A stretch of 64,000 nt of DNA from Escherichia phage CMS-2020a: the sequence record CP053388.1, one strand, 5' to 3'. The notes beneath the pieces are model-generated. The model had not been told where the DNA came from, made no database searches, and saw only the letters and a list, made by a program, of their open reading frames with translations. This document shows, in pieces, positions 15,873-64,000 of the stretch (position 1 is its first letter; every line of letters starts with the position of its first letter). Position numbers and translations under genes: made by a program.

Positions 15873-17129
15873 CTATCGAGAACCACCAAGAATAACACGG
15901 TTTTTGACTGGATACCTACGATGTACTGGATAGCCCAATGCGTCTGCACTATGCTCAATGCCACCTGTCTTATCCATATCTCGTGTTCCAGGCTTGTAGA
16001 TGACTTTTTCCAGTGAATCAATCAAATGCTTGCACTTCGGATCGATATACAGCCGGATATCTCCAGATGCGGACATCAGCATTCGGTTAACAGCATTAAC
16101 ACGATCCGCAATTGGCGGGTGCTTTTTCGAATAATCGACACGTAAGAATCCCTTCTCTTTGAATATGTCTACGTCAGACTCCCCACGAGCATGTTGGCGA
16201 TAAGCACCTGCCGGATCTGGAAATACCGTTACCTGTGATTTCCAGCGCCAGAAGCGTCTCTCAAGCTCATCACAAACTTCTGCCGTGTTAGAGGAAAAGA
16301 GCACCAATTCATCAATTGCCCATAGCTCACCATTTGGCTGAGGTTGCAAAATTACTGAAGACATCGGGTCAATGTTGAAGTCCTGCCCTACCCATATAGG
16401 CAACCGAGGGTTGAACTGAAGCGGTTTTACATGCACGTTACGATCGAACGGGTAGTAAACGCGCCCGGACATGTTCTCAAAGCTGGCCAGGTACTCCTGA
16501 GCGAACGATTTGGGGTCCATATCGTTCTTAGCAGCTTCAATTTCCGCCGTAGGTACAAACGGAGAATCGGCAGTTACAAACTGCCAGCTCTTCCACTGTC
16601 CCTTTCTTTGCAGCTCTACGTTCTGGCCTATCGTCCACAGTTTGTGAAATTCCGAGAAGCCTTTTGGCGTACCAATGATCAGTGCACCGCCGCGTGTCGA
16701 TGAAAGAGTAGGTCGTAACACCTTGTACCAGGTGTCAGCCTTCATATCCTGAAATTCATCAAGCACTACAAAATGCAACGCTACGCCGCGCAGAGTGTCA
16801 GGCTTATCAGCACCTTTGAGGGCGATCTCCGAACCGTTCTTCAACACGATTGTCATCGTGGTGTCGTTCTTTTTCCTAACCCACTTACGAGGCAGAACTT
16901 CCTGTAGATCGTCCCACAAAATCTGGCGAGCCATCTGGTAAGTAGGAGCGACATACCAGACCCTTTGCTTTTTTTCCTTTGCCGCCGCACGAATAATAGT
17001 GGAGATCGACAACCGGGATTTTCCCCAGCGTCGACCAGCACAAACAACTTTAAATCGATGCGGAGACTGGAAGACTTTCATCTGTCCAGAATGCAGTTGC
17101 ACAAGACTGAGCGAGGACGGGATTGCCAT
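15873..17129 (-). CDS. Terminase large subunit
   Basis: Walker A (VVCAGRRWGKS) and Walker B (HFVVLDEFQD) in the N-terminal ATPase, acidic residues in the C-terminal half; ATGA overlap with the upstream small subunit. Confidence 0.85.
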   Translation of the reverse strand: MAIPSSLSLVQLHSGQMKVFQSPHRFKVVCAGRRWGKSRLSISTIIRAAAKEKKQRVWYVAPTYQMARQILWDDLQEVLPRKWVRKKNDTTMTIVLKNGSEIALKGADKPDTLRGVALHFVVLDEFQDMKADTWYKVLRPTLSSTRGGALIIGTPKGFSEFHKLWTIGQNVELQRKGQWKSWQFVTADSPFVPTAEIEAAKNDMDPKSFAQEYLASFENMSGRVYYPFDRNVHVKPLQFNPRLPIWVGQDFNIDPMSSVILQPQPNGELWAIDELVLFSSNTAEVCDELERRFWRWKSQVTVFPDPAGAYRQHARGESDVDIFKEKGFLRVDYSKKHPPIADRVNAVNRMLMSASGDIRLYIDPKCKHLIDSLEKVIYKPGTRDMDKTGGIEHSADALGYPVHRRYPVKNRVILGGSR

Positions 17130-17761
17130 TATTCGTCCTCCCCTTCACTTCCATCATCTGTCGCATCAAATTCGCTTAGAGCTTCTTCTTCCAACGTCTC
17201 AAGCAATTCGTCATCGATGATTTCAGGCTCGTCGTCTTCCTGACGTAATTTCGCCACCTGGGAAGGCGTAAGCTCACCAAATACCAGGTTCGGAATTTCT
17301 TCCTCGTCATTTTCCGCATGATCCATGCCCAATGCTTTGGACGAAACTTCAAAGCATTTTGCAAGGGTATTACTGGCTCTCTGTAAGCTCTTGAGAGAAT
17401 CCTCAATCGCCCCTAAAGGCTTACCCTCACGTTTGGCCGTAGTGACTTCGACCATCACCATCTGCCCCAACGCATACGCCCAGCCGTCATAACGTGTACG
17501 ACGTTCTTCTATCTTTTCCGCACGGGCTTTAGCGCGAAGCTCTGCGTCAGATTTAAGAGACTCACGAACCATCTTCCCAACAGAGTCCGCGCCTTTCTCT
17601 AATCCTCGCTTTTTGAAATGTCTGGAGAGTGTTTCACGACGAATGCCGTACTCTTCCTCCAGCTTTGAGAGTGTATATTCGCCTGACGTCCATTTGGCTT
17701 CAGCTTCGGCCCACTCCGCTGGTGTCAGGCGAGTTTTTACCTCGTCTTTTTCGACCGTCAT
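17129..17761 (-). CDS. Terminase small subunit (putative)
   Basis: 210 aa, N-terminal HTH-like segment (YTLSKLEEEYGIRRETLSRHFKKRG), very acidic C-terminus, coupled to the large subunit. Confidence 0.6.
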   Translation of the reverse strand: MTVEKDEVKTRLTPAEWAEAEAKWTSGEYTLSKLEEEYGIRRETLSRHFKKRGLEKGADSVGKMVRESLKSDAELRAKARAEKIEERRTRYDGWAYALGQMVMVEVTTAKREGKPLGAIEDSLKSLQRASNTLAKCFEVSSKALGMDHAENDEEEIPNLVFGELTPSQVAKLRQEDDEPEIIDDELLETLEEEALSEFDATDDGSEGEDE

Positions 17762-19383: not shown

Positions 19384-20014
19384 ATTCCACCTTCACGCGT
19401 TCTTTGTAGTGCTTGGTGATCTGCATATCCGGGCGCAGCGCGTTCTTCAGGTCTTCGTGAGTCGTCGCCACCATTACCGTCGCACCAACCTTTCGAGCGG
19501 CACGCTGGAGGTTAGATGCCACAACCTGAGCGGTTACACGGTCGAGAACAGCGCCGAACTCGTCAGCAGCCCACACTTTAGCGCCTGACTCAATCAGTTT
19601 GGCAATCTTGAGACGATATTTCTGACCGTCTGACATTTCAGAAGGCTTGCGAACAAACAGATATGCATCGTTCAGACCAGCCATAGATAACAACCCAAGC
19701 GCATCACTGGTAGTTTTGCCCAGTTGGTCAATGACGTTAACCTCATTATCGAAGGTAAAATCATCGATGGAGGCCACAGATAGCCCTTCATCCTTCATCT
19801 GGTGTTGCAGCTCGCGCAGCACAACGGATTTGCCGGAACCGGATTGGCCGGTAATGTACACCACATCGCCCTGCTTCACTTCCAGCTCCAGATTGTCGTA
19901 AAGCGTCCACTCTTTTTCGTCCAGGCCAAGCCCGAACGACTCAGCGATTTCCAACGTGCGCGTGGTTTTATTTACGCGTGTCTGAAACGATACGTTGATG
20001 ATGTATTTGCTCAT
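19376..20014 (-). CDS. Minimal ABC-type ATPase
   Basis: Walker A GQSGSGKS, signature-like SDGQKYRLKIA, Walker B VWAADEFG, H-loop ATTHE within 212 aa. Confidence 0.65.
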   Translation of the reverse strand: MSKYIINVSFQTRVNKTTRTLEIAESFGLGLDEKEWTLYDNLELEVKQGDVVYITGQSGSGKSVVLRELQHQMKDEGLSVASIDDFTFDNEVNVIDQLGKTTSDALGLLSMAGLNDAYLFVRKPSEMSDGQKYRLKIAKLIESGAKVWAADEFGAVLDRVTAQVVASNLQRAARKVGATVMVATTHEDLKNALRPDMQITKHYKERVKVEYA

Positions 20015-20679
20015 GCAGCCATCTCCCCGGAAGAGATCTTCTCCGCATATGCCACAAATGCGTCTACCCCGCTTTCTCCCGTCATTTCTTCCATGTGGGC
20101 AAGCAAATCACCAACAACAATGGCAGAGCCAGCAGGGAGCGTTTTAAAGCCCAATACGTCGACAACACGTACTTCTTCCGCTGCAACTTCACGACTGATC
20201 TCGGTGTGTTCATCCTTCTGTCGTTTAGTTTCTTCGCCAAGATCGATAACTAGCGAGTCGGTGTCCATTTCTTCTGTCATACTGCCAACGAGAACATTCA
20301 ACTCACGCTCTTCAAAGCCGAAAACCTCGATATCGTCCAGAACAAGCGACTCAAGCTCTTTCTGTAGCTTAATTGCATCGTAATCAATGCTGGCAAGTCG
20401 GTTATCTTCAAGGCGCTTCGCACGAACCTCGTCATCACTGAGATCATCGCGAACAATAACCGGTACGCGCTCAAGTCCAGCAAAAATTGCAGCCTCACGG
20501 CGGCCGTGGCCAGTAATAATTACGTCGTTCTTATCGACCGTAATTGGCTGGTCAAATCCGCGCTTTTTAATGGCTGCGGCTAGATCTCGGATCTGCTGTT
20601 CATCATGCTTTTTGGCATTCATCTCATAGGGAATAAGATCTGCCGGGTCGCGATATACGATTTCAAACTTTTTGGTCAT
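20011..20679 (-). CDS. ParB-like N-terminal domain protein (paralog 2; start adjusted to Met at 20679)
   Basis: ParB/Srx motif ITGHGRREAA; 1-nt overlap with the upstream ParB-like gene and 4-nt overlap with the ATPase gene. Confidence 0.65.
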   Translation of the reverse strand: MTKKFEIVYRDPADLIPYEMNAKKHDEQQIRDLAAAIKKRGFDQPITVDKNDVIITGHGRREAAIFAGLERVPVIVRDDLSDDEVRAKRLEDNRLASIDYDAIKLQKELESLVLDDIEVFGFEERELNVLVGSMTEEMDTDSLVIDLGEETKRQKDEHTEISREVAAEEVRVVDVLGFKTLPAGSAIVVGDLLAHMEEMTGESGVDAFVAYAEKISSGEMAA

Positions 20680-21377
20680 TACATACGCTCCTTGTAGTAG
20701 TCGACCAGCCATACCAGAGCCTCACCAGCGTTCTCCATTTCATTACCGGTGTTAATAGCCTGCTCTTTGATGATGTTTTTTATGGTTTCTGCAACACGAT
20801 CTGACGCATCGAAAGTTACTTTGAAGCGCATGGTCTGATGTTCCGCACCCACACGTTCGGTTTTCTCTCGTTTGTCGGTATCGACAGGCTCATCACTACC
20901 ACGAGACAACGCCTCCAGTGCTTCAAGGTCGATTGCCGCCTCTTTTGCTAAAACCATCGAGATTTCGTCGTCATACGGGGCGATTTCAGACAGTTGATAG
21001 TCAAGTTCTGACTGAATTTCTTCAATGAAGCGTTGCAATGCGATTTGGTCGTCTTCACCGTATCGCTCGTTGTCCACCAGTGACATCTGTTTAGCTACGA
21101 CATCGCTAATTTTGCCCACAGAAAGCACCGGAACCGTTGAAATTCCTTGCTCAATAGCAGCACGCCAGCGATGTTCGCCGCCGAGGATTTCAAAAAATCC
21201 ATCTTCAAGTTCACGAGCCAAAATTGGCTTAAAAAAGCCCAATTTTTCGATAGAACCTTTCAGTTTTTCAAAATTCTGCGCACCAACCGAATTGGTGTTC
21301 CAGGTATTCGGGCGAAGGTTGGCAACATCAACCTGCAAAATCGTGATTTTTACATCCATTTTATTGCTACAATCCAC
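20679..21377 (-). CDS. ParB-like N-terminal domain protein (paralog 1)
   Basis: Classical ParB box ILGGEHRWRAA; first gene of the operon, divergent from the helicase gene. Confidence 0.7.
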   Translation of the reverse strand: MDCSNKMDVKITILQVDVANLRPNTWNTNSVGAQNFEKLKGSIEKLGFFKPILARELEDGFFEILGGEHRWRAAIEQGISTVPVLSVGKISDVVAKQMSLVDNERYGEDDQIALQRFIEEIQSELDYQLSEIAPYDDEISMVLAKEAAIDLEALEALSRGSDEPVDTDKREKTERVGAEHQTMRFKVTFDASDRVAETIKNIIKEQAINTGNEMENAGEALVWLVDYYKERM

Positions 21378-23350: not shown

Positions 23351-23773
23351 ATGAAATACTCGCTTCTCCCTCTACTAACGTTACCAGTGTTGATGCTTAC
23401 CGCGTGCCAATCACGCCCAATATCAATCCATGACGCCAAACCAGCACCGCAGGCCAAAGTGTTCAAGTATCAAAGCGCAGCGCCAGCTACGTTGGTGGTA
23501 ATGAGAGACACAGGTTTTGTAGGAGCTGGATGTGATGCTTCCATTTTCATCAACGGCGAAACTGTCGCAAAACTGGCTACAGGCGAAAAAGCGACTTTCC
23601 ATTTAAATGCCGGAGTATTAATTGTGGGTGCATCTCTTGAAGGTGCAGGTTTATGTGCTCTAAACCCCGCTCGTCAAGAGCGAGAAACGACTCTGAAGAA
23701 TGGAGACACAAAAGCGTTCAGGGTGTTCACCAGCAATTCTGGTGACATCGACATTCTGCCAACAACTCTGTGA
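23351..23773 (+). CDS. Putative lipoprotein (start adjusted to MKYSLLPLLTLPVLMLTAC)
   Basis: Signal peptide with lipobox L-T-A-C; track ORF begins 14 codons earlier. Confidence 0.55.
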   Translation: MKYSLLPLLTLPVLMLTACQSRPISIHDAKPAPQAKVFKYQSAAPATLVVMRDTGFVGAGCDASIFINGETVAKLATGEKATFHLNAGVLIVGASLEGAGLCALNPARQERETTLKNGDTKAFRVFTSNSGDIDILPTTL

Positions 23774-23777
23774 TGAC

Positions 23778-24302
23778 ATGACAACCAAAGATATTACCTA
23801 CGGTATCCAAGCTGAACTCTGGCCGCGAGATTACACTAACGTTGAAAAACTACTGATGTTCTGGCGCAGAGAACAAATTCCTGTAAGGGTCACTCTCGAA
23901 GATGGCCAGGCGTTTTGCATGTACGTTTATGGCCTCATGCCATCTCGTAACAAAGTTGACCTTTGCCCAGCCCCTTTTGACAAAGAAAATCGTATAAGGC
24001 TCCCACTTGAACGCATTAGTACAATTGAATCAGGTGTGGTTGACAGTATCGCTCACGATTTCAAAGGTCGACTAACAGTTCACCCTGATTATGTCGATAA
24101 TCGGCCATCACGCCGCGATTTTTTTGCAATTTGCAACCAAGCCTACAAAGCAAACAAATCTATAAGGGTGTACATGGCGGATGGCCGTGAAATTGAGGGG
24201 GTGTCAGCAGGTGCAGATGCTTGTCAGGTTACACTACGTGTCGAGAACGGTAGAAAAATAGTTGTTTTGTTCGATTGGGTTGAACGAATTTTGCCTTTTT
24301 GA
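23778..24302 (+). CDS. Hypothetical protein (start adjusted to MTTKDITYG)
   Basis: Track ORF 23700-24302 overlaps the lipoprotein gene; in-frame ATG at 23778 follows the lipoprotein stop. Confidence 0.45.
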   Translation: MTTKDITYGIQAELWPRDYTNVEKLLMFWRREQIPVRVTLEDGQAFCMYVYGLMPSRNKVDLCPAPFDKENRIRLPLERISTIESGVVDSIAHDFKGRLTVHPDYVDNRPSRRDFFAICNQAYKANKSIRVYMADGREIEGVSAGADACQVTLRVENGRKIVVLFDWVERILPF

Positions 24303-24898: not shown

Positions 24899-25549
24899 AT
24901 GGCTAACATTATCATTTCTAAAAAATCCATCGTTGAAGCTGCTTCCATTGTATCCGATGAACTGCGCGAAAAAGCAGATCTGGCAACTCAAACATACAAC
25001 GAACATTATAAAAATGGTACGCACACTAAAGCAGACAAAGCAAATATGCAAGCTGCGACCACTAAACTAGCTTACTTCATCAACAACGTTGTAAACGCTG
25101 TAGAAGACGAAAAATTGTGCTCTGTTTTCTACTATGCGATTAAAGCAAGCAAACAAGCGCCAGAAGTATTTTTTCGTGATGCAATGACTAATAGTTATTC
25201 TCTGGAAAAACTGGTTTATCTGGTTAAATCAATTAAATCTGGTAAATGCATTTATTCCATCGCTGATATGTCTGGATCTCGTGTATTCGCTTTAATCGAT
25301 ATGATTAACGACGAGATCGACACGTTCACCAATGGCGCTGTTTTCGATTTAATGAATGAAGCTAAAAAAGCGTGTGAAATTAAATTGGACGCTGGCTATA
25401 CTCAAGCCAACCAGTTGATCAATCTTTGCGAACGTCTCGGACTTGTTGAAAAAGTCAAAGGAGCTGGGAGCGCCAAAGCTGGTACACAGCAATATCGCTT
25501 TATCAAGAATGATTTCTACAATTATTTAGCTGATGCTTTTAAAGCGTAA
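24899..25549 (+). CDS. Moron protein 1, unknown function
   Basis: 216 aa ORF with strong RBS (aagga) in an AT-rich segment; no motif recognised. Confidence 0.6.
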   Translation: MANIIISKKSIVEAASIVSDELREKADLATQTYNEHYKNGTHTKADKANMQAATTKLAYFINNVVNAVEDEKLCSVFYYAIKASKQAPEVFFRDAMTNSYSLEKLVYLVKSIKSGKCIYSIADMSGSRVFALIDMINDEIDTFTNGAVFDLMNEAKKACEIKLDAGYTQANQLINLCERLGLVEKVKGAGSAKAGTQQYRFIKNDFYNYLADAFKA

Positions 25550-26129: not shown

Positions 26130-26540
26130 TTGTCTTTAACTCACTCCAACAACATAAAAATAAGCGCCAAAATAACGCCATAGACGCGCTTTTATATCCT
26201 TACCAGTACATGCCCATTACTTAACACATTAACGCGCTTAAAACGCGTTATATTGCGCTATAGAGTATGGTTAATCATTGGCTTTTAGTCTTGCTATGTG
26301 ATCCGCGCTTATTTGTCGGTGCGGATCGGTATTTTGTTTTGTTCTGTATCCGCTCGCGTATTATGTGCGCGTGATTTTTCACTTAATCACACCACTTAAT
26401 CACGTATGTGATTATGCTACGAAAGAAATCTGGATGTCTCAGGTGACGAAAGTCATCATAATTTTCCCCGCTCACCTGTCCGACAACCGCTGGTTGGATT
26501 CCACCAGCTTCCCGATGTTTTTTCTACACAAAGGCGAATG

Positions 26541-26623
26541 CAGCCGTTTCCCGAAAAAATCCTGGCCGTTCCCCCGTCGGCTCATGAATACGTTCCTCGC
26601 CGCTTCTGAAAATTTCCCTGCGG
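26541..26623. repeat. Iteron-like array, type 1, cluster 1
   Basis: agccgtttcccgaaaaa, ggccgttcccccgtcgg, acgttcctcgccgc, cgcttctgaaaatttccctgcgg at about 22 bp spacing. Confidence 0.5.
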
Positions 26624-26669
26624 CAGCTGGTGGCTATAGAGAAAGGGCCGTTTCTGGCCCTCTTCTCAG

Positions 26670-27152
26670 TTACACGCCATCAAGGATGTGGATGCGGTTG
26701 CTTGCGTATACATTCAGCATAAAGTTAGCGCAAAACAGTTTCCATGTATCAACGCCAGCGGTATACGTAATGTTTTTGCATTTAATCGCATTGTTGGCGA
26801 TCCGCATCCCCTGCGATACTGCTTCATCGTCGGAAAATTTGAACGACGATTGAGTTTTAATCCAGACAGAAATCTGCGTAGCGAACTCAATCAGCTTGGA
26901 CTGGCAGAATCGCCCGGAGCGCACCGGAAAGACGAACGTTCCGAATCCAGAATTTACCACATATGCTTTCTCAAATACCCTCGAGTAACGACGATTGCCA
27001 ATGATGTCGCGTGCAATAATGCATTTTTCTTGTGCTGACAGTTCTACCGTCTCATTGTCGCGCCATGCACCAAGTACTCGTTTTTCAATGTCAGAGAACG
27101 TTACAGCGATATTGCCATGTGCGGGTGCGTTTACAGTAGCGATAAAATTCAT
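26670..27152 (-). CDS. Hypothetical protein
   Basis: 160 aa with RBS (aagga) before ATG at 27152 and motif A at 27174-27187; preferred over the overlapping plus-strand ORF. Confidence 0.5.
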   Translation of the reverse strand: MNFIATVNAPAHGNIAVTFSDIEKRVLGAWRDNETVELSAQEKCIIARDIIGNRRYSRVFEKAYVVNSGFGTFVFPVRSGRFCQSKLIEFATQISVWIKTQSSFKFSDDEAVSQGMRIANNAIKCKNITYTAGVDTWKLFCANFMLNVYASNRIHILDGV

Positions 27153-27356
27153 GATTAATTCCTTATCGTAAATAACAAATTGTTTTCTTGTTGGTGTTAA
27201 TTATCGTTGTACGAATAAGGCGTCAAAGTGGAAAGTTGCGGTAGCCGGACGGGAACAGGTGGGTTTGTCGGTTGCCTGGAGGTAAGAGGTTGGTGTTTTT
27301 AGCCTGCGGGAAACAAGATGGTCATTTAAGGCCACCAATGCTGATGGCCTTAATAA

Positions 27357-27500
27357 TTATCGCACGATTACGCTAAGGATCTTTTCCTCAACTGATTTGT
27401 TGTTGCGACTAAACTGCCTTGCGTATCTGATGACAGAAGAGGCGTTTTGCTTTCTGACCATCTCGGCTCTTTCCTTCAGGCGTTTCTTGAAATCGCCCAT
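27357..27500 (-). CDS. Small basic protein (47 aa), hypothetical
   Basis: MGDFKKRLKERAEMVRKQNASSV...; ATG 2 nt after the stop of the upstream gene; below the ORF-track length cutoff. Confidence 0.3.
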   Translation of the reverse strand: MGDFKKRLKERAEMVRKQNASSVIRYARQFSRNNKSVEEKILSVIVR

Positions 27501-27502
27501 AT

Positions 27503-27877
27503 TTACCACCAGGCGCAGAAGGTCAGTCTGTTATTGTGAAAGTCGTGGTTCTTAATCAGATCTTCCACAAGCTCTTTCAACTGCCCCACATCATGCCAGT
27601 AACCTTCATCGTACTCCTGACTGCCGAAGAAAAAACCTTCCCGGGTAGGCAAGTACTCTTCGCAATTACTTTCGTTTATGTGCATCAAATGAGCCTTCAG
27701 AAAACAAATGTCATTCATCGTTAATTCTAAAAGCTCACAATTTTCGACTTCACCTACGTTGCGCTCCATCCACCCAACGAGCGCATTGAACTTACGGAAG
27801 TAAGCAACCTGCTTTCTGGATGCCTCGTTATTCAGATCGTTTTTAGGCTGTGTCTCGATATAGATATCAAGTCCCAT
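27503..27877 (-). CDS. Hypothetical protein (start adjusted to MGLDIYIE)
   Basis: RBS (aagga) before ATG at 27877; motif A at 27934-27947 upstream. Confidence 0.5.
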   Translation of the reverse strand: MGLDIYIETQPKNDLNNEASRKQVAYFRKFNALVGWMERNVGEVENCELLELTMNDICFLKAHLMHINESNCEEYLPTREGFFFGSQEYDEGYWHDVGQLKELVEDLIKNHDFHNNRLTFCAWW

Positions 27878-27994
27878 GATGGTTTCCTTATTAAGTTGCT
27901 TCAGTGAAATCATTTTCACAAATCAGATAAGGCAGAAAACAAATTGTTATCGGGCTTAATAAAATGGCGCGGTTTACGCGCCATTTAAAGAGGA

Positions 27995-28390
27995 TTAAGC
28001 GAATACGCTTTCAGGGATTAAGGTGTCGGCAGGAATGCCAGAGGTAATGCGCAGGCCGTACTGACCAATCCAGGTAGTGTTGGTATTCAGGTTGGAGGCG
28101 AATACGGTGTTAACCATATTCATCATGGTTTCAAACACCTCTTCATCAACCTGGCGGAAGTAGTTCTCGATTTTCAGCAGCAGCGGGTCAGTTGCATCGA
28201 GAATGGACTGGTATTGAGTCGCGTACTCGCCGTCGGAGGCATCACCTTTACGCACGATCGTACTGGCCTGGACTTCGGCACCAGTTTCGGTGTTGTACGT
28301 AACAACGGTGATTTTTGCCACATTCTTACCTTCGGCGGTTTCAGAGGCATAGTAAACATCAACTGTCAGTTTTTCGCGTTTAACGGTCAT
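27995..28390 (-). CDS. Hypothetical protein (start adjusted to MTVKREKL)
   Basis: RBS GGAGAG before ATG at 28390; palindromic motif B at 28430-28452 upstream. Confidence 0.5.
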   Translation of the reverse strand: MTVKREKLTVDVYYASETAEGKNVAKITVVTYNTETGAEVQASTIVRKGDASDGEYATQYQSILDATDPLLLKIENYFRQVDEEVFETMMNMVNTVFASNLNTNTTWIGQYGLRITSGIPADTLIPESVFA

Positions 28391-28455
28391 TTCACTCTCC
28401 GTAGTGTTTTGGTTATTTTTATATTCTATGATAGTAAGTATGTACTTACAATACA

Positions 28456-28484
28456 AAAAAGCCCCGTAAGGATGGCGGGGCTGT
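28456..28484 (-). terminator. Rho-independent terminator
   Basis: Minus strand reads hairpin gccccgccatccttacggggc followed by ttttttg. Confidence 0.6.
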
Positions 28485-28516
28485 CGTACTGTCGACTAAT
28501 TGCCACTTGCACATTA

Positions 28517-28828
28517 TCAGGCTATTGCCATCACTGATGCTCTCTGAATCTCTTGCTGGGCCACGCGGTTAACTTCCATCAAAGCCAGTTCGAGCTGATG
28601 TTCCGGCCACATTCTTTGAAATGCCACCCAGCCTTTTCCACGCTGGCGACGAACATTCATTACATAACGAGTAAAGGTGTTTTTATCGAAAGACACCGCT
28701 GTTTCACGGAACAGACGAATAGAGGTTCCATTGGCAACGATGTCCAGCAAAGTTAATTGAGCAACCAGCGCAGGCTTCTCTTTTCTCTTCTGGTCTTTGT
28801 CCAGACCAAGAACCAATGATTTTTTCAT
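28517..28828 (-). CDS. Hypothetical protein (start adjusted to MKKSLVLGL)
   Basis: RBS GGAG 7 nt before ATG at 28828; motif A at 28840-28854 immediately upstream. Confidence 0.5.
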   Translation of the reverse strand: MKKSLVLGLDKDQKRKEKPALVAQLTLLDIVANGTSIRLFRETAVSFDKNTFTRYVMNVRRQRGKGWVAFQRMWPEHQLELALMEVNRVAQQEIQRASVMAIA

Positions 28829-28981
28829 TACAACTCCGTAAACAACTTGTTTTCTCAATGGCGTAAATAATACCAGTAAGAAAACGGCTACAAAGCATAT
28901 TGATCAGGTGCATGAGCGATATGCAGGTTCTTCCCTGCGGCTATAGAGAAATTAAGCCAGCATTGCTGGCTTTGGTTGGGG

Positions 28982-29311
28982 TTACTCGAATACTTCAAGA
29001 AACTCCTGAACGTCCCAATGCTGGACGAGGTGAAGATAGACCTTAGAAATCACGTCATTTTCGCTATCGCATGTGAAGTAGTACTTCTGGCTGCGGTTGT
29101 ATGTGTCCACACAAAATTCGCTCATATCCATAAAGTCAGCATCTTCACCCAGGTCGCTGATCATCAAAGCAGGTGCGTCATCACGAGTCATCAGTTCCAG
29201 CACCCATCTTGAATTGATCAGAGTGGAAGACCAACCTTCTAACTCATAAAACTGATCAAACTCTTTTTGAGTTAATTTCTTGATTTGGTTGATGTCGATA
29301 TTTGTAAACAT
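28982..29311 (-). CDS. Acidic hypothetical protein (start adjusted to second Met)
   Basis: RBS aagga before ATG at 29311; motif A variant at 29324-29338. Confidence 0.5.
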   Translation of the reverse strand: MFTNIDINQIKKLTQKEFDQFYELEGWSSTLINSRWVLELMTRDDAPALMISDLGEDADFMDMSEFCVDTYNRSQKYYFTCDSENDVISKVYLHLVQHWDVQEFLEVFE

Positions 29312-29671
29312 AAAGCAATCCTTAAACATGTTGTTTTCTTGATGGTGTTATTATCGCAATAACACACAGGCGGAAAAGGATTTTATTCCGGTGAATGTGG
29401 TTTTGGCAGTGAGTTTTCAGGTTCAGTACCGAGTACACTTTTTACATTATTCTGATTTAGTGGCCGAAAGTGGCTGGTGGCAGAGTAATCCTCTCCCCAA
29501 AAACCTACTGAAATCGATTGTGCCCCGTTGGCTGTCTGGCACAATTACGCTGTAGCTGGGCATTCAGAGGGAATCCAGCGGTAAGCAAGTCCGCCTACGT
29601 GAGCGCCTCTCTTCTTCCCGCACATTACAGGTGGGTAGCCGCAACTCTCCCTCTCGCTATACCGGTACGCC

Positions 29672-29806
29672 ACCGTTCCTGAACCGGCATCGAGCCTTCT
29701 CCCGAAATCCACACAGGCAACTCGACCGTTTCTCTGAAAACCTCCAGCCGTTCCCCGAAGGCAACCCAGCCGTTTCTGTAGCGGGATGCAGCCTTTTCCC
29801 TGTATG
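29672..29806. repeat. Iteron-like array, type 1, cluster 2
   Basis: Six copies of (A/G)(G/A)CC(G/T)TT(T/C)(C/T)C: accgttcctgaacc, agccttctcccgaaatcc, gaccgtttctctgaaaacc, agccgttccccgaagg, agccgtttctgtagcgg, agccttttccctgtatgg at about 21-22 bp spacing. Confidence 0.5.
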
Positions 29807-30131
29807 GACCGAAGGCTGACCGTAGGGGTGTTACGGGGGGATAAAATCAGGAGTTGAATAAATACGAAAAAGGAGGCGACACCTCTCCTTCCCTCCCCAC
29901 TTATACATACCTGGCTTCTTCGCTATACATGTTGTGTTTTCTTCGTGTTTTATCTGTCTCAACCTCTCTATAGGCGTTAATGCTCACTCCTTCCAGAACG
30001 TTCTATACGGCGACTATTTCTGTTGGTGAATTGGGTGTGTTGTTTTCTCTGTCGGTGTATGTGGTTTCGTTCGTTTTGCGGTGGTTCTTCTAGGGGGTGT
30101 TCTCGTCGTTTTGGTGATTGTTCTTCTCCAT

Positions 30132-30490
30132 GTATGGAGTAATGGCAGGTGGGCGATTCCTTTCGTTGTTGTGTTTGAGTTGTTTGTCTGGAGTGCGTGA
30201 AGGGCTTTTGTAGTTATTCGTGTATTGGGTAATGGCGTTTCCCGTGATTGTTATGTTTCGTGTCTTTTGGGATTGAGAGAATCCTTGTGGTTACAGGCTT
30301 CGTTGGGGTTTCAGTGATTCTGGTGTTTCTTCGCTGTTTGGGTAATGGCCTGTCGTGGGTATCGCGCGTATGAATGTTTTCGGATTGCCTGTGAAAGTTA
30401 GGTTGGTTGTCCGGTAGCCTGGGGAGAAGAGGTGGGTCTTTTCGGTAGCCTGCCATAAAGAGGTTGGTTGTTTTTGGGAATGGCATGTGT
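30132..30490. repeat. Degenerate tandem repeats in a GT-skewed non-coding tract
   Basis: ggagtaatggcaggtggg (30132), ttgggtaatggcgtttcc (30222), ttgggtaatggcctgtcg (30338), ttgggaatggcatgtgtg (30473) about 100-130 bp apart; only short low-complexity ORFs. Confidence 0.5.
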
Positions 30491-30864
30491 GTTATTTAGT
30501 TGTTTTGTTATACCTGAAAATGAGTTGTTTATATGGTTGTGTAACGCAACGGGAGCGATTTTGAGCGTGTGTTTTTGTTGGTAGTGTGTTGGGTCGTCTG
30601 TGGTGAAAATTGGACGCTGTGGCGCTGTCTGCTGCGTAGAGTTACGGGTATAAGAAGTGATGTGTGAAAACGTCAATTTTTTAGACCAAATCGGGTGAAA
30701 GCGTTGACGTTTCGTTGATCTGTTATTTAGTTGTTTTCTTATTTGTATAAACAACCATAACCTATTGATATTTAAAGATATGATTGCAGCTATGGAAGGG
30801 GAGTAGTGGCGATCAACGGATTCTTATAGAAAAGAATCAAATTGTGACCGCCATTATCAATGTT

Positions 30865-31599
30865 TTACATAGTTTTGTTTAGCAGAGAGAGAATTTCATC
30901 ACTAATTTCACTCGCCTGTTTTATAGCCAATGCAGTTACCTCTTCTATGGTTGGTGACTGTTGATGCTCATGTTTGGTTTCAGTTATGACAATGTGTTCT
31001 TCACCTGAATTTGCGCATAGTGCCGCATTGACGATAAGGTTTGAGTAAGAATTTAGCAGAGCACTGTTGATAAACGCTTTCACGGTATTACTGTCTGCAC
31101 CAAATACATCTTTTCTGACCGCTTCAGCCTCACAGCGAACCCCTGCAGCAACATCGTGAAGAACATGTATGGCCTTGGGGCTTGTTTGTTCACAGTACTC
31201 AATCATTATTGTCGAATTGTTCTGTTCAACAAACGATCTGATGCCTGACGATTCACCCATAGCATCGAAGGCAGCGTGACCCGCACTGGTAGAGATATCT
31301 TCATAGAGTTCTTCATCGCTATCTTTTTCTTCAGGTGTCGAGGTGTCTTCATCGTCGTAATAGATATTGCCTTTAATCAGTGTTTTGGACACTTGATATA
31401 AACAATAAGAAACGAGATTTAAGCATTGGATTTTAGCTGTATTGTCCTTTGTCGCCTCGCTCTTCAGTTCTTTCGCTTCTTCAGTAAGGCTGTTGATAAG
31501 ACTTTGTATTTTTTCCAACGCGTTAGGCGCACACTCCGCGTTGTCCATAAAGAATTTATAACCAGTCCCAGGGATTTCTAAACTTTTCAACTTTTTCAT
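30865..31599 (-). CDS. Hypothetical protein
   Basis: 244 aa ORF downstream of the 99-aa gene. Confidence 0.5.
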   Translation of the reverse strand: MKKLKSLEIPGTGYKFFMDNAECAPNALEKIQSLINSLTEEAKELKSEATKDNTAKIQCLNLVSYCLYQVSKTLIKGNIYYDDEDTSTPEEKDSDEELYEDISTSAGHAAFDAMGESSGIRSFVEQNNSTIMIEYCEQTSPKAIHVLHDVAAGVRCEAEAVRKDVFGADSNTVKAFINSALLNSYSNLIVNAALCANSGEEHIVITETKHEHQQSPTIEEVTALAIKQASEISDEILSLLNKTM

Positions 31600-63679: not shown

Positions 63680-63765
63680 ATGTCATTTTTCTGTGATTGT
63701 TAGCCGAGGCAACGATAACCCACCAGGTGCGCCGAAGGTAGTAAATGCCTGTTTTAATTATTCAC

Positions 63766-63774
63766 ATATCCACA
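63766..63774. promoter_or_regulatory. DnaA box-like site
   Basis: ATATCCACA, 8 of 9 match to TTATCCACA, directly before the GATC cluster. Confidence 0.45.
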
Positions 63775-63779
63775 GGATA

Positions 63780-63838
63780 GATCCTAATAAAGAGATCCAT
63801 AGATAGATCCTTATATAGATCAAATAAGATCCCCGATC
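63780..63838. repeat. GATC cluster (six Dam sites in 59 bp) in AGATCC-type short repeats
   Basis: GATC at 63780, 63794, 63806, 63818, 63828, 63835. Confidence 0.7.
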
Positions 63839-63880
63839 GCTGTAAGCCGCGCCACGACTGGTCTAAAGTCATGTTCATGT

Positions 63881-63980
63881 ATGCTGTCAGCGGTAATTGA
63901 TAGTCTGTCAGCGGTTCACCGTATGCTGCCAACTGTTTTTGGTATTCTGTCAGCGGCAAATCAAGTATGCTGTCAGCGGT
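63881..63980. repeat. Iteron array, type 2 (TGTCAGCGG core)
   Basis: atgctgtcagcggt (63881), gtctgtcagcggt (63904), degenerate gtatgctgccaac (63921), ttctgtcagcggc (63946), atgctgtcagcggt (63967); 21-22 bp spacing; array may continue past the window end. Confidence 0.65.
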
Positions 63981-64000
63981 TGAATGACAAAGGTGTCCAC

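Follow-up and report, generated by a model that had tools for sequence, protein, structure and literature searches.

Two arrays of phased direct repeats in an SSU5-like phage-plasmid: candidate protein-binding sites with a possible role in the lytic cycle

The two repeat arrays

In the 64,000-nucleotide stretch of Escherichia phage CMS-2020a analysed here (record CP053388.1; hereafter the window), two non-coding arrays of one short direct repeat, A1 at 26541-26655 and A2 at 29671-29806, both on the plus strand, bracket a 3.1-kb cassette of small genes. The window belongs to an Escherichia coli phage-plasmid of the SSU5/pHCM2 family: its region 26300-30100 shares 97.9% identity with Escherichia phage Cyrano (the pLF82 element) and about 99% with many ~110-kb E. 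coli plasmids, and it matches Klebsiella phage-plasmids and Salmonella phage SSU5 in part.

A2 holds six same-strand copies of the core GCCKTTYCY, whose 10-mers start at 29671, 29693, 29724, 29746, 29768, and 29790. The spacings of 22, 31, 22, 22, and 22 bp correspond to 2, 3, 2, 2, and 2 helical turns and, because the 31-bp step amounts to about three turns, the helical phase is kept across the array. In A1, two intact copies lie 22 bp apart at 26541-26576 (AGCCGTTTCC at 26542 and GGCCGTTCCC at 26564) and are conserved in all relatives, including Yersinia pestis pMT1. A third copy, from about 26598, has a mutated core in the window (GCCGCTTCT) and is intact in most relatives (GCCGTTTCT); a variant element (TTTCCCTGCGG, 26613-26623) follows it, and a GC hairpin, GGGCC-GTTTCT-GGCCC, at 26645-26660 has a further copy (GGCCGTTTCT, 26646-26655) as its loop and one half of its stem. 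This hairpin lies just past the stop codon of a gene for a 160-residue protein and is conserved in the alignment of relatives. Read by eye, it would be a terminator for the convergent transcription units that meet here; it was not among the predictions of a terminator scan. The original prediction had placed both arrays correctly, and A2 does have six copies (29671-29790), whereas A1 is weaker in the window than the four copies that it had counted there suggest, only two being intact.

The 8-mer core CCKTTYCY matches the window 18 times, against about 15 matches expected, and eight of its 13 plus-strand matches fall inside the two arrays. Five matches lie within 140 bp in A2; across 300 dinucleotide-preserving shuffles of the window, the largest cluster of this kind held one match in 226 shuffles, two in 73, and three in a single one, and none equalled A2. 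A position-weight matrix built from the copies was scanned over ~108 kb, comprising the window plus the remainder of a near-identical plasmid, and scores above 13 bits were found only in the arrays, apart from one isolated match of 13.1 bits (L012, position 39345, minus strand). Iteron arrays are taken to comprise at least three helically phased direct repeats of ~17-22 bp; A2 has six such copies and A1 two to three. The arrays are real and their clustering is beyond chance. The general idea of the original prediction, phased sites outside genes for cooperative binding on one face of the DNA, also holds.

BLAST searches with either array region returned over 700 plasmids, among them elements of only 67-77% identity from Klebsiella, Enterobacter, Citrobacter, Cronobacter, and Salmonella, and the A1 region alone also matches 55 Yersinia plasmids. 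Among 14 relatives from six genera, the motif copies have identical positions, strand, and phasing, including the 31-bp step; the relatives carrying arrays come from Escherichia, Klebsiella, Enterobacter, Citrobacter, Salmonella (pHCM2/SSU5), and Yersinia (pMT1, A1 only). In a logo of 45 distinct copies, the core CC-K-TT-Y-C is invariant and the remainder of the 22-bp unit is free. The copy number of A2 varies from 4 to 7 among relatives, PhiR41 being about one unit short. Two more distant elements (L034 and L036), found through a 216-residue protein encoded near A1 and 53-62% identical in it, have the motif at equivalent places, and L036 retains the 22-bp spacing. Viral and genome collections were also searched with a 32-nt two-copy pattern, which returned three viral contigs (two of them SSU5-like) and 13 contigs of unrelated genomes; the 13 look like chance matches, and the three of them that were scanned (L016, L025, and L028) had no arrays. 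Since this search gave nothing convincing outside the SSU5-like family, the element seems, as far as sequence matches tell, to be confined to it.

The Yersinia plasmids bear on what the arrays are needed for. In pMT1, A1 is present and, after a copy of IS1541, the sequence passes straight into distant genes. The A2 region has no match in any Yersinia plasmid of the collection, all of which are maintained nonetheless, and A1 is retained there. Judged from this comparison, A2 seems dispensable for plasmid maintenance, because pMT1 lacks it. The arrays are also kept though the replicon type of the relatives varies (rep_cluster_488 versus IncFIB), and by the same kind of comparison they are independent of the variable replicon modules.

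Surrounding sequence and genes

As originally noted, neither array lies in a convincing open reading frame (ORF). The ORF calls over them, CYRAN_104 over A2 and a 50-residue coding sequence over A1 in NZ_CP082122, are not conserved, and the array alignments carry frame-breaking indels. A coding function is thereby rejected. In the public annotation of Cyrano, the 134-residue CYRAN_104 spans A2 (L002, 11679-12083); its frame is broken in the window and in relatives, so this gene call is probably spurious.

A structured RNA was likewise excluded by folding, covariation, and Rfam. The fold z-scores of A2 against shuffles are -0.10 and +0.06 for the two strands, the consensus fold of 13 relatives over 233 columns reaches -8.7 kcal/mol with a covariation term of -0.57, and Rfam and tRNA scans gave no match. 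Repeats of a type III toxin-antitoxin system were rejected too, the units being too short and too divergent and the adjacent small proteins matching no toxin family in Pfam. As an element acting at the RNA level, the repeats might be protein-binding motifs in a transcript, either a GGA-rich minus-strand sponge for a protein of the CsrA or FljA type or a C-rich plus-strand site for Rho loading. Each unit does have GGA in its minus strand (GGGAAACGG, CAGGAACGG), A2 is rich in C and poor in G on its plus strand (GC skew -0.30), and a gene of the FljA family lies 2.2 kb from A1. Against these points, the arrays fold no better than shuffled sequence, show no covariation, and have no Rfam match; the K of the core (G or T) is a transversion that would not preserve a base pair in a stem; the E. 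coli fliC leader has just GGAAAC in common with the units; and no clear pair of promoter and terminator was found framing either array. Expression of A2 in lysogens is low as well: in Cyrano lysogen transcriptomes, the ORF calls over A2 and the skewed region described below are near the expression floor, with nearby genes well expressed (PMC9928086, S1 Table). We consider an RNA-level role highly improbable. The FljA-family gene itself (23700-24302), annotated as a transcriptional regulator, matches Pfam Flag1_repress with E = 2.5e-84, has a weak Hfq-like match in the C-terminal part of its product, and is kept in all relatives; FljA-like regulators prevent translation of the fliC (flagellin) mRNA (PMC2652032).

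To the right, A2 is followed by a conserved block (29807-29900), 84% identical in Klebsiella, that consists of a GC-rich segment, then GATAAAATCAGGAGTTGAATAAATACG, and then a terminator-like hairpin on the minus strand (29873-29885). Beyond it lies a non-coding region of about 700 bp (29950-30700) whose plus strand is ~73% G+T, with a GC skew of up to +0.55 and an AT skew of -0.66, the sole such run in the 64-kb window. It adjoins A2 in all relatives examined, and the skew is seen in all of them, much weaker in the most distant (L036 and L038). The region is taken as non-coding because frame-shifting indels occur in it even between close relatives. Four to six copies of RGGTAATGGC lie in it, on the plus strand only (30137, 30227, 30340, and 30475 in the window). 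As self-pairing is impossible for a strand composed almost wholly of A and C, this DNA would remain unstructured when unwound or transcribed; it might serve replication priming, Rho loading, or something else. No other non-coding DNA in this part of the genome is as conserved as the arrays and the skewed region.

The gene layout around these elements was taken from the annotation of relatives. Late and packaging genes occupy the minus strand up to ~21.4 kb, a short plus-strand operon spans 21.4-26.05 kb, the cassette between the arrays consists of five small genes on the minus strand (26670-29311), and a 1.5-kb stretch (29311-30865) has no annotated gene. At least three of the small genes have a promoter-like region upstream together with a conserved leader element, the palindrome AACAAnTTGTT, which recurs in the promoter/leader segments at 27174-27187, 27938-27951, 28841-28854, and 29325-29338 and looks like a common operator, predicted to serve a dimeric repressor. 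Segments related to this leader, AAGAAAACAAC, occur at ~30510 and ~30735. Between the plus-strand operon and A1, two copies of the direct repeat CACTTAATCAC followed by an inverted GTGATTA (26380-26414) make up an operator-like element. A common segment, TTCCCTGCGGC...CTATAGAGAAA, is found at 26613-26644 and 28931-28955, just past the hairpins behind two of the small minus-strand genes, and elements like CTCTATAG occur again at ~29650 and ~29966. For the proteins encoded next to or between the arrays, searches of Pfam, PHROGs, NCBIfam, PADLOC, and PDB sequences gave no function.

Both arrays apparently sit in gaps flanked by terminators. A1 lies at the convergence of two transcription units, with several plus-strand terminators before it and the hairpin after it; as for A2, a terminator-like hairpin of the minus strand is located upstream, and ~290 bp separate the array from the nearest promoter-like site downstream. 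Origins, centromeres, and packaging signals are often found in such transcription-free gaps.

A candidate for the protein that binds the arrays is encoded on the plus strand at 24899-25549. Its 216 residues are modelled (predicted local distance difference test score, pLDDT, 82.8) as a long N-terminal helical hairpin followed by a C-terminal winged helix, of which the recognition helix and wing are the best-conserved part. The protein is present in every relative, and its family is confined to SSU5-like elements. The case for it as the binder is circumstantial. The 160-residue protein encoded on the other side of A1 gave a confident model and no structural match.

The arrays might be operators or silencing sites: the 216-residue protein, for example, would coat A1 and A2 and bridge them, looping out the cassette and repressing or insulating it, as lambda CI does with OL and OR. 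The arrangement of two same-orientation arrays around small genes with promoter-like upstream regions fits this, as do the position of a conserved winged-helix gene immediately upstream of A1, a recognition helix as invariant as the motif, and the two-turn spacing, which is typical for cooperative repressor binding and is found in lambda OR and OL. However, neither array overlaps any promoter found, the small genes already carry a separate palindromic leader element, the sites are asymmetric direct repeats and not dimer palindromes, and homologues of the 216-residue protein occur with reduced or absent arrays. An operator array, one of the roles originally proposed, is the main rival to the explanation that we favour below, possible, like an architectural array, but on the unlikely side.

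Plasmid replication, partition, and packaging

The original prediction had led with a centromere for the ParB-like proteins and had also offered a second origin. Neither fared well. The replication origin of the plasmid, oriR, lies at 63760-63990, where five RepA iterons (TATGCTGTCAGCGG, core TGCTGTCAGCGG; 63875-63980) come after a DnaA box close to the consensus (ATATCCACA) and clustered GATC sites, and repA (364 residues) starts just past the end of the window, beyond 64000, at position 1 of NZ_CP082122. In Klebsiella relatives, too, RepA iterons have been described beside repA (PMC6735626). The motif of these iterons is unlike that of A1 and A2, and the arrays are excluded as the iterons of the plasmid RepA. 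They might still form a second iteron-controlled origin of the plasmid type, or a copy-control array for RepA. The 22-bp spacing would suit this, being the classic iteron spacing of F, P1, RK2, and R6K. Set against it are the different sequence and place of the genuine RepA iterons, the retention of the arrays in relatives with another replicon type, the lack of a DnaA box or an AT-rich element by the arrays, and the absence of A2 from pMT1; the 216-residue neighbour, moreover, is modelled with a single winged helix of the ArsR/MarR kind and not as a two-domain Rep protein. Of all the readings considered, this one appears the least probable, extremely so.

Partition offers little more. Two adjacent proteins with a ParB_N domain are encoded on the minus strand at 20011-21377, next to genes for ABC-type ATPases; on that strand, the terminase genes follow just downstream. 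The two ParB_N genes lie ~5 kb from the arrays and have no ParA gene beside them as a parA-parB operon would, and their products look more like the N-terminal domain of a phage DNA methyltransferase than partition proteins do. The arrays might be a centromere for these two proteins or for another segregation protein; the core GCCKTTYCY is asymmetric, occurs solely as direct repeats, and is, we presume, unlike the canonical chromosomal-type parS. No partition nucleoside triphosphatase (NTPase) is encoded nearby, the ParA-like locus of the plasmid is elsewhere (outside the window, at record position 30571-31239), pMT1 is maintained although it lacks A2, and in comparisons with the 216-residue protein TubR scores no better than generic ArsR/MarR proteins. 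We regard a centromere as very unlikely.

A packaging role, in which the small terminase subunit would bind the repeats (as a pac or cosB-like site) to start packaging, is better described as a real lead from sequence comparison, though still quite unlikely. The best array copies contain CGTTTCC, the 7-mer common to the three R sites of lambda cosB, as checked on NC_001416 (R3, GGCGTTTCCG; R2, GTCGTTTCCT on the other strand; R1, GTCGTTTCCT); having been noticed after many known motifs were compared, this match is possibly a matter of chance (estimated at a few percent). Known pac sites, such as those of P1 and SPP1, are also clusters of short repeats. Chi sites, moreover, lie beside both arrays: one (GCTGGTGG, 26626-26633, plus strand) adjoins A1, another (26501-26508, minus strand) lies by A1, and a third (29473-29480, plus strand) is left of A2. 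As the two at A1 face outward, RecBCD coming from either side would meet Chi before A1. On the other side of the balance, the terminase genes (15873-17761) lie 9-12 kb away from the arrays, the putative small subunit is unlike Nu1 (BLASTP E = 9.8), no Nu1-like ORF was found in the genome by BLASTP or phmmer, the large subunit is of the T4/Terminase_3 kind and not of the lambda GpA kind, and there is no site for integration host factor (IHF). As to Chi in general, the 64-kb window has 14 sites, where its length alone would predict ~2, and the places of those beside the arrays are kept in most relatives.

Candidate lytic-cycle sites and comparison with known systems

The combination of an invariant, short, asymmetric core with variable spacers, one orientation, phasing by two or three turns, and variable copy number is why we read A1 and A2 as head-to-tail rows of binding sites for a sequence-specific protein of the phage backbone. 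At this spacing, the bound proteins would lie on roughly one face of the DNA and could bind cooperatively, and with both arrays in the same orientation around the 3.1-kb cassette, a bridged or looped complex is plausible. The transaction that they serve would be one of the lytic cycle, which we favour because the arrays belong to the conserved phage backbone, seem not to be needed for maintenance, and share the genome with a T4-like replication set without an assigned origin (a gp32-like protein, a UvsW-like helicase, RNase H, an SbcCD-like pair, a primase, and a DnaB-like helicase). Our first choice draws an analogy with the iteron clusters of phage origins and with P4 ori/crr: together with its conserved flank and the 700-bp G/T-skewed region, A2 may act as a replication origin, or an enhancer, that belongs to the phage itself and is used by the T4-like replisome, and A1 would be an auxiliary second site, on the pattern of P4. 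Taken as a whole, this explanation is tentative; we would give it not quite an even chance, ahead of the operator loop and well ahead of terminase recognition, and the centromere, plasmid-origin, and RNA readings are all unlikely beside it. A bolder version is speculative and unlikely in itself: A2 with its flank and the skewed region would be a previously undescribed kind of phage lytic origin, in which the array recruits an initiator, the skewed zone with its RGGTAATGGC repeats, neither strand of which could fold on itself, lets the T4-like helicase-primase land and prime on DNA free of structure, and A1 acts as distal partner.

Several observations weigh against a lytic origin or enhancer. 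Neither array has beside it a DnaA box (TTATCCACA, allowing at most one mismatch), an IHF consensus, or a 30-bp window with at least 77% A+T, and Pfam, NCBIfam, and PHROG searches revealed no recognisable initiator gene adjacent to the arrays. The replisome genes lie far from the arrays on the genome, the array binder is an unproven candidate, and A1 persists in pMT1, a plasmid not known to grow lytically. Among distant relatives, L034 has spacings of 10-26 bp in which the phasing is not kept, the arrays of the Serratia-type element L038 are down to single copies, and in another element of that type, L035, no array was found in 18.5 kb around the gene for the 216-residue protein. Since they are reduced or absent in the Serratia-type relatives, the arrays may be accessory and their tie to the 216-residue protein weak.

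SSU5-like phage-plasmids include pHCM2 of Salmonella Typhi, pMT1 of Y. pestis, and hundreds of ~110-kb plasmids of E. coli and Klebsiella, some with resistance genes. In the literature searched, we found no description of the repeats, the packaging mode, or the lytic origin of these phages. The plasmid replicon is already known; the arrays and the skewed region, as the most conserved non-coding DNA hereabouts, are the obvious place to seek sites for lytic replication, packaging, or early control. If they turn out to act as an origin or in packaging, this would help to explain induction, copy-number bursts, and transduction, and would provide a compact sequence marker for the family.

Compared with other direct-repeat systems, the arrays are apparently a cis-element not described before, family-wide and of a familiar general type. 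They resemble the iteron arrays of P1 (incC/incA), F ori2, lambda ori, and P4 (ori and crr) in their short, asymmetric, same-orientation direct repeats ~22 bp apart, their conserved core with free spacers, their variable copy number, and their grouping in two clusters a few kb apart. The likeness to P4, whose two iteron clusters are separated by 4.5 kb, is especially close. They differ from these in that A1 and A2 have no adjacent initiator of a known family, DnaA box, or AT-rich unwinding element, in that their recognisable core is only 8-9 bp long, and in that the iterons of this plasmid itself are of another sequence and lie elsewhere.

Direct-repeat centromeres, such as F sopC, R1 parC, tubC of pBtoxis with its TubR, and that of the phage-plasmid c-st, are likewise rows of direct repeats coated cooperatively by a small protein, and a winged-helix protein of the TubR/ArsR-like kind is encoded near A1. 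Unlike them, A1 and A2 have no motor NTPase next to them and do not track the variable partition modules, and A2 seems dispensable in pMT1. The lambda operators OL and OR, bridged by CI over 2.3 kb, resemble the arrays in having sites ~23-24 bp apart and in forming two clusters a few kb apart that flank a regulatory or early region; they are palindromes that overlap promoters, whereas A1 and A2 are direct repeats away from promoters. Finally, the sites R1-R3 of lambda cosB, bound by gpNu1, share the 7-mer with the arrays and occur as several copies within ~130 bp. There, however, one of the sites is inverted, 40-50 bp separate them, an IHF site is present, and the cluster abuts cosN and nu1, whereas A2 consists of six direct repeats at 22 bp, with the terminase genes 9-12 kb off, an unrelated small subunit, and a large subunit of another type.

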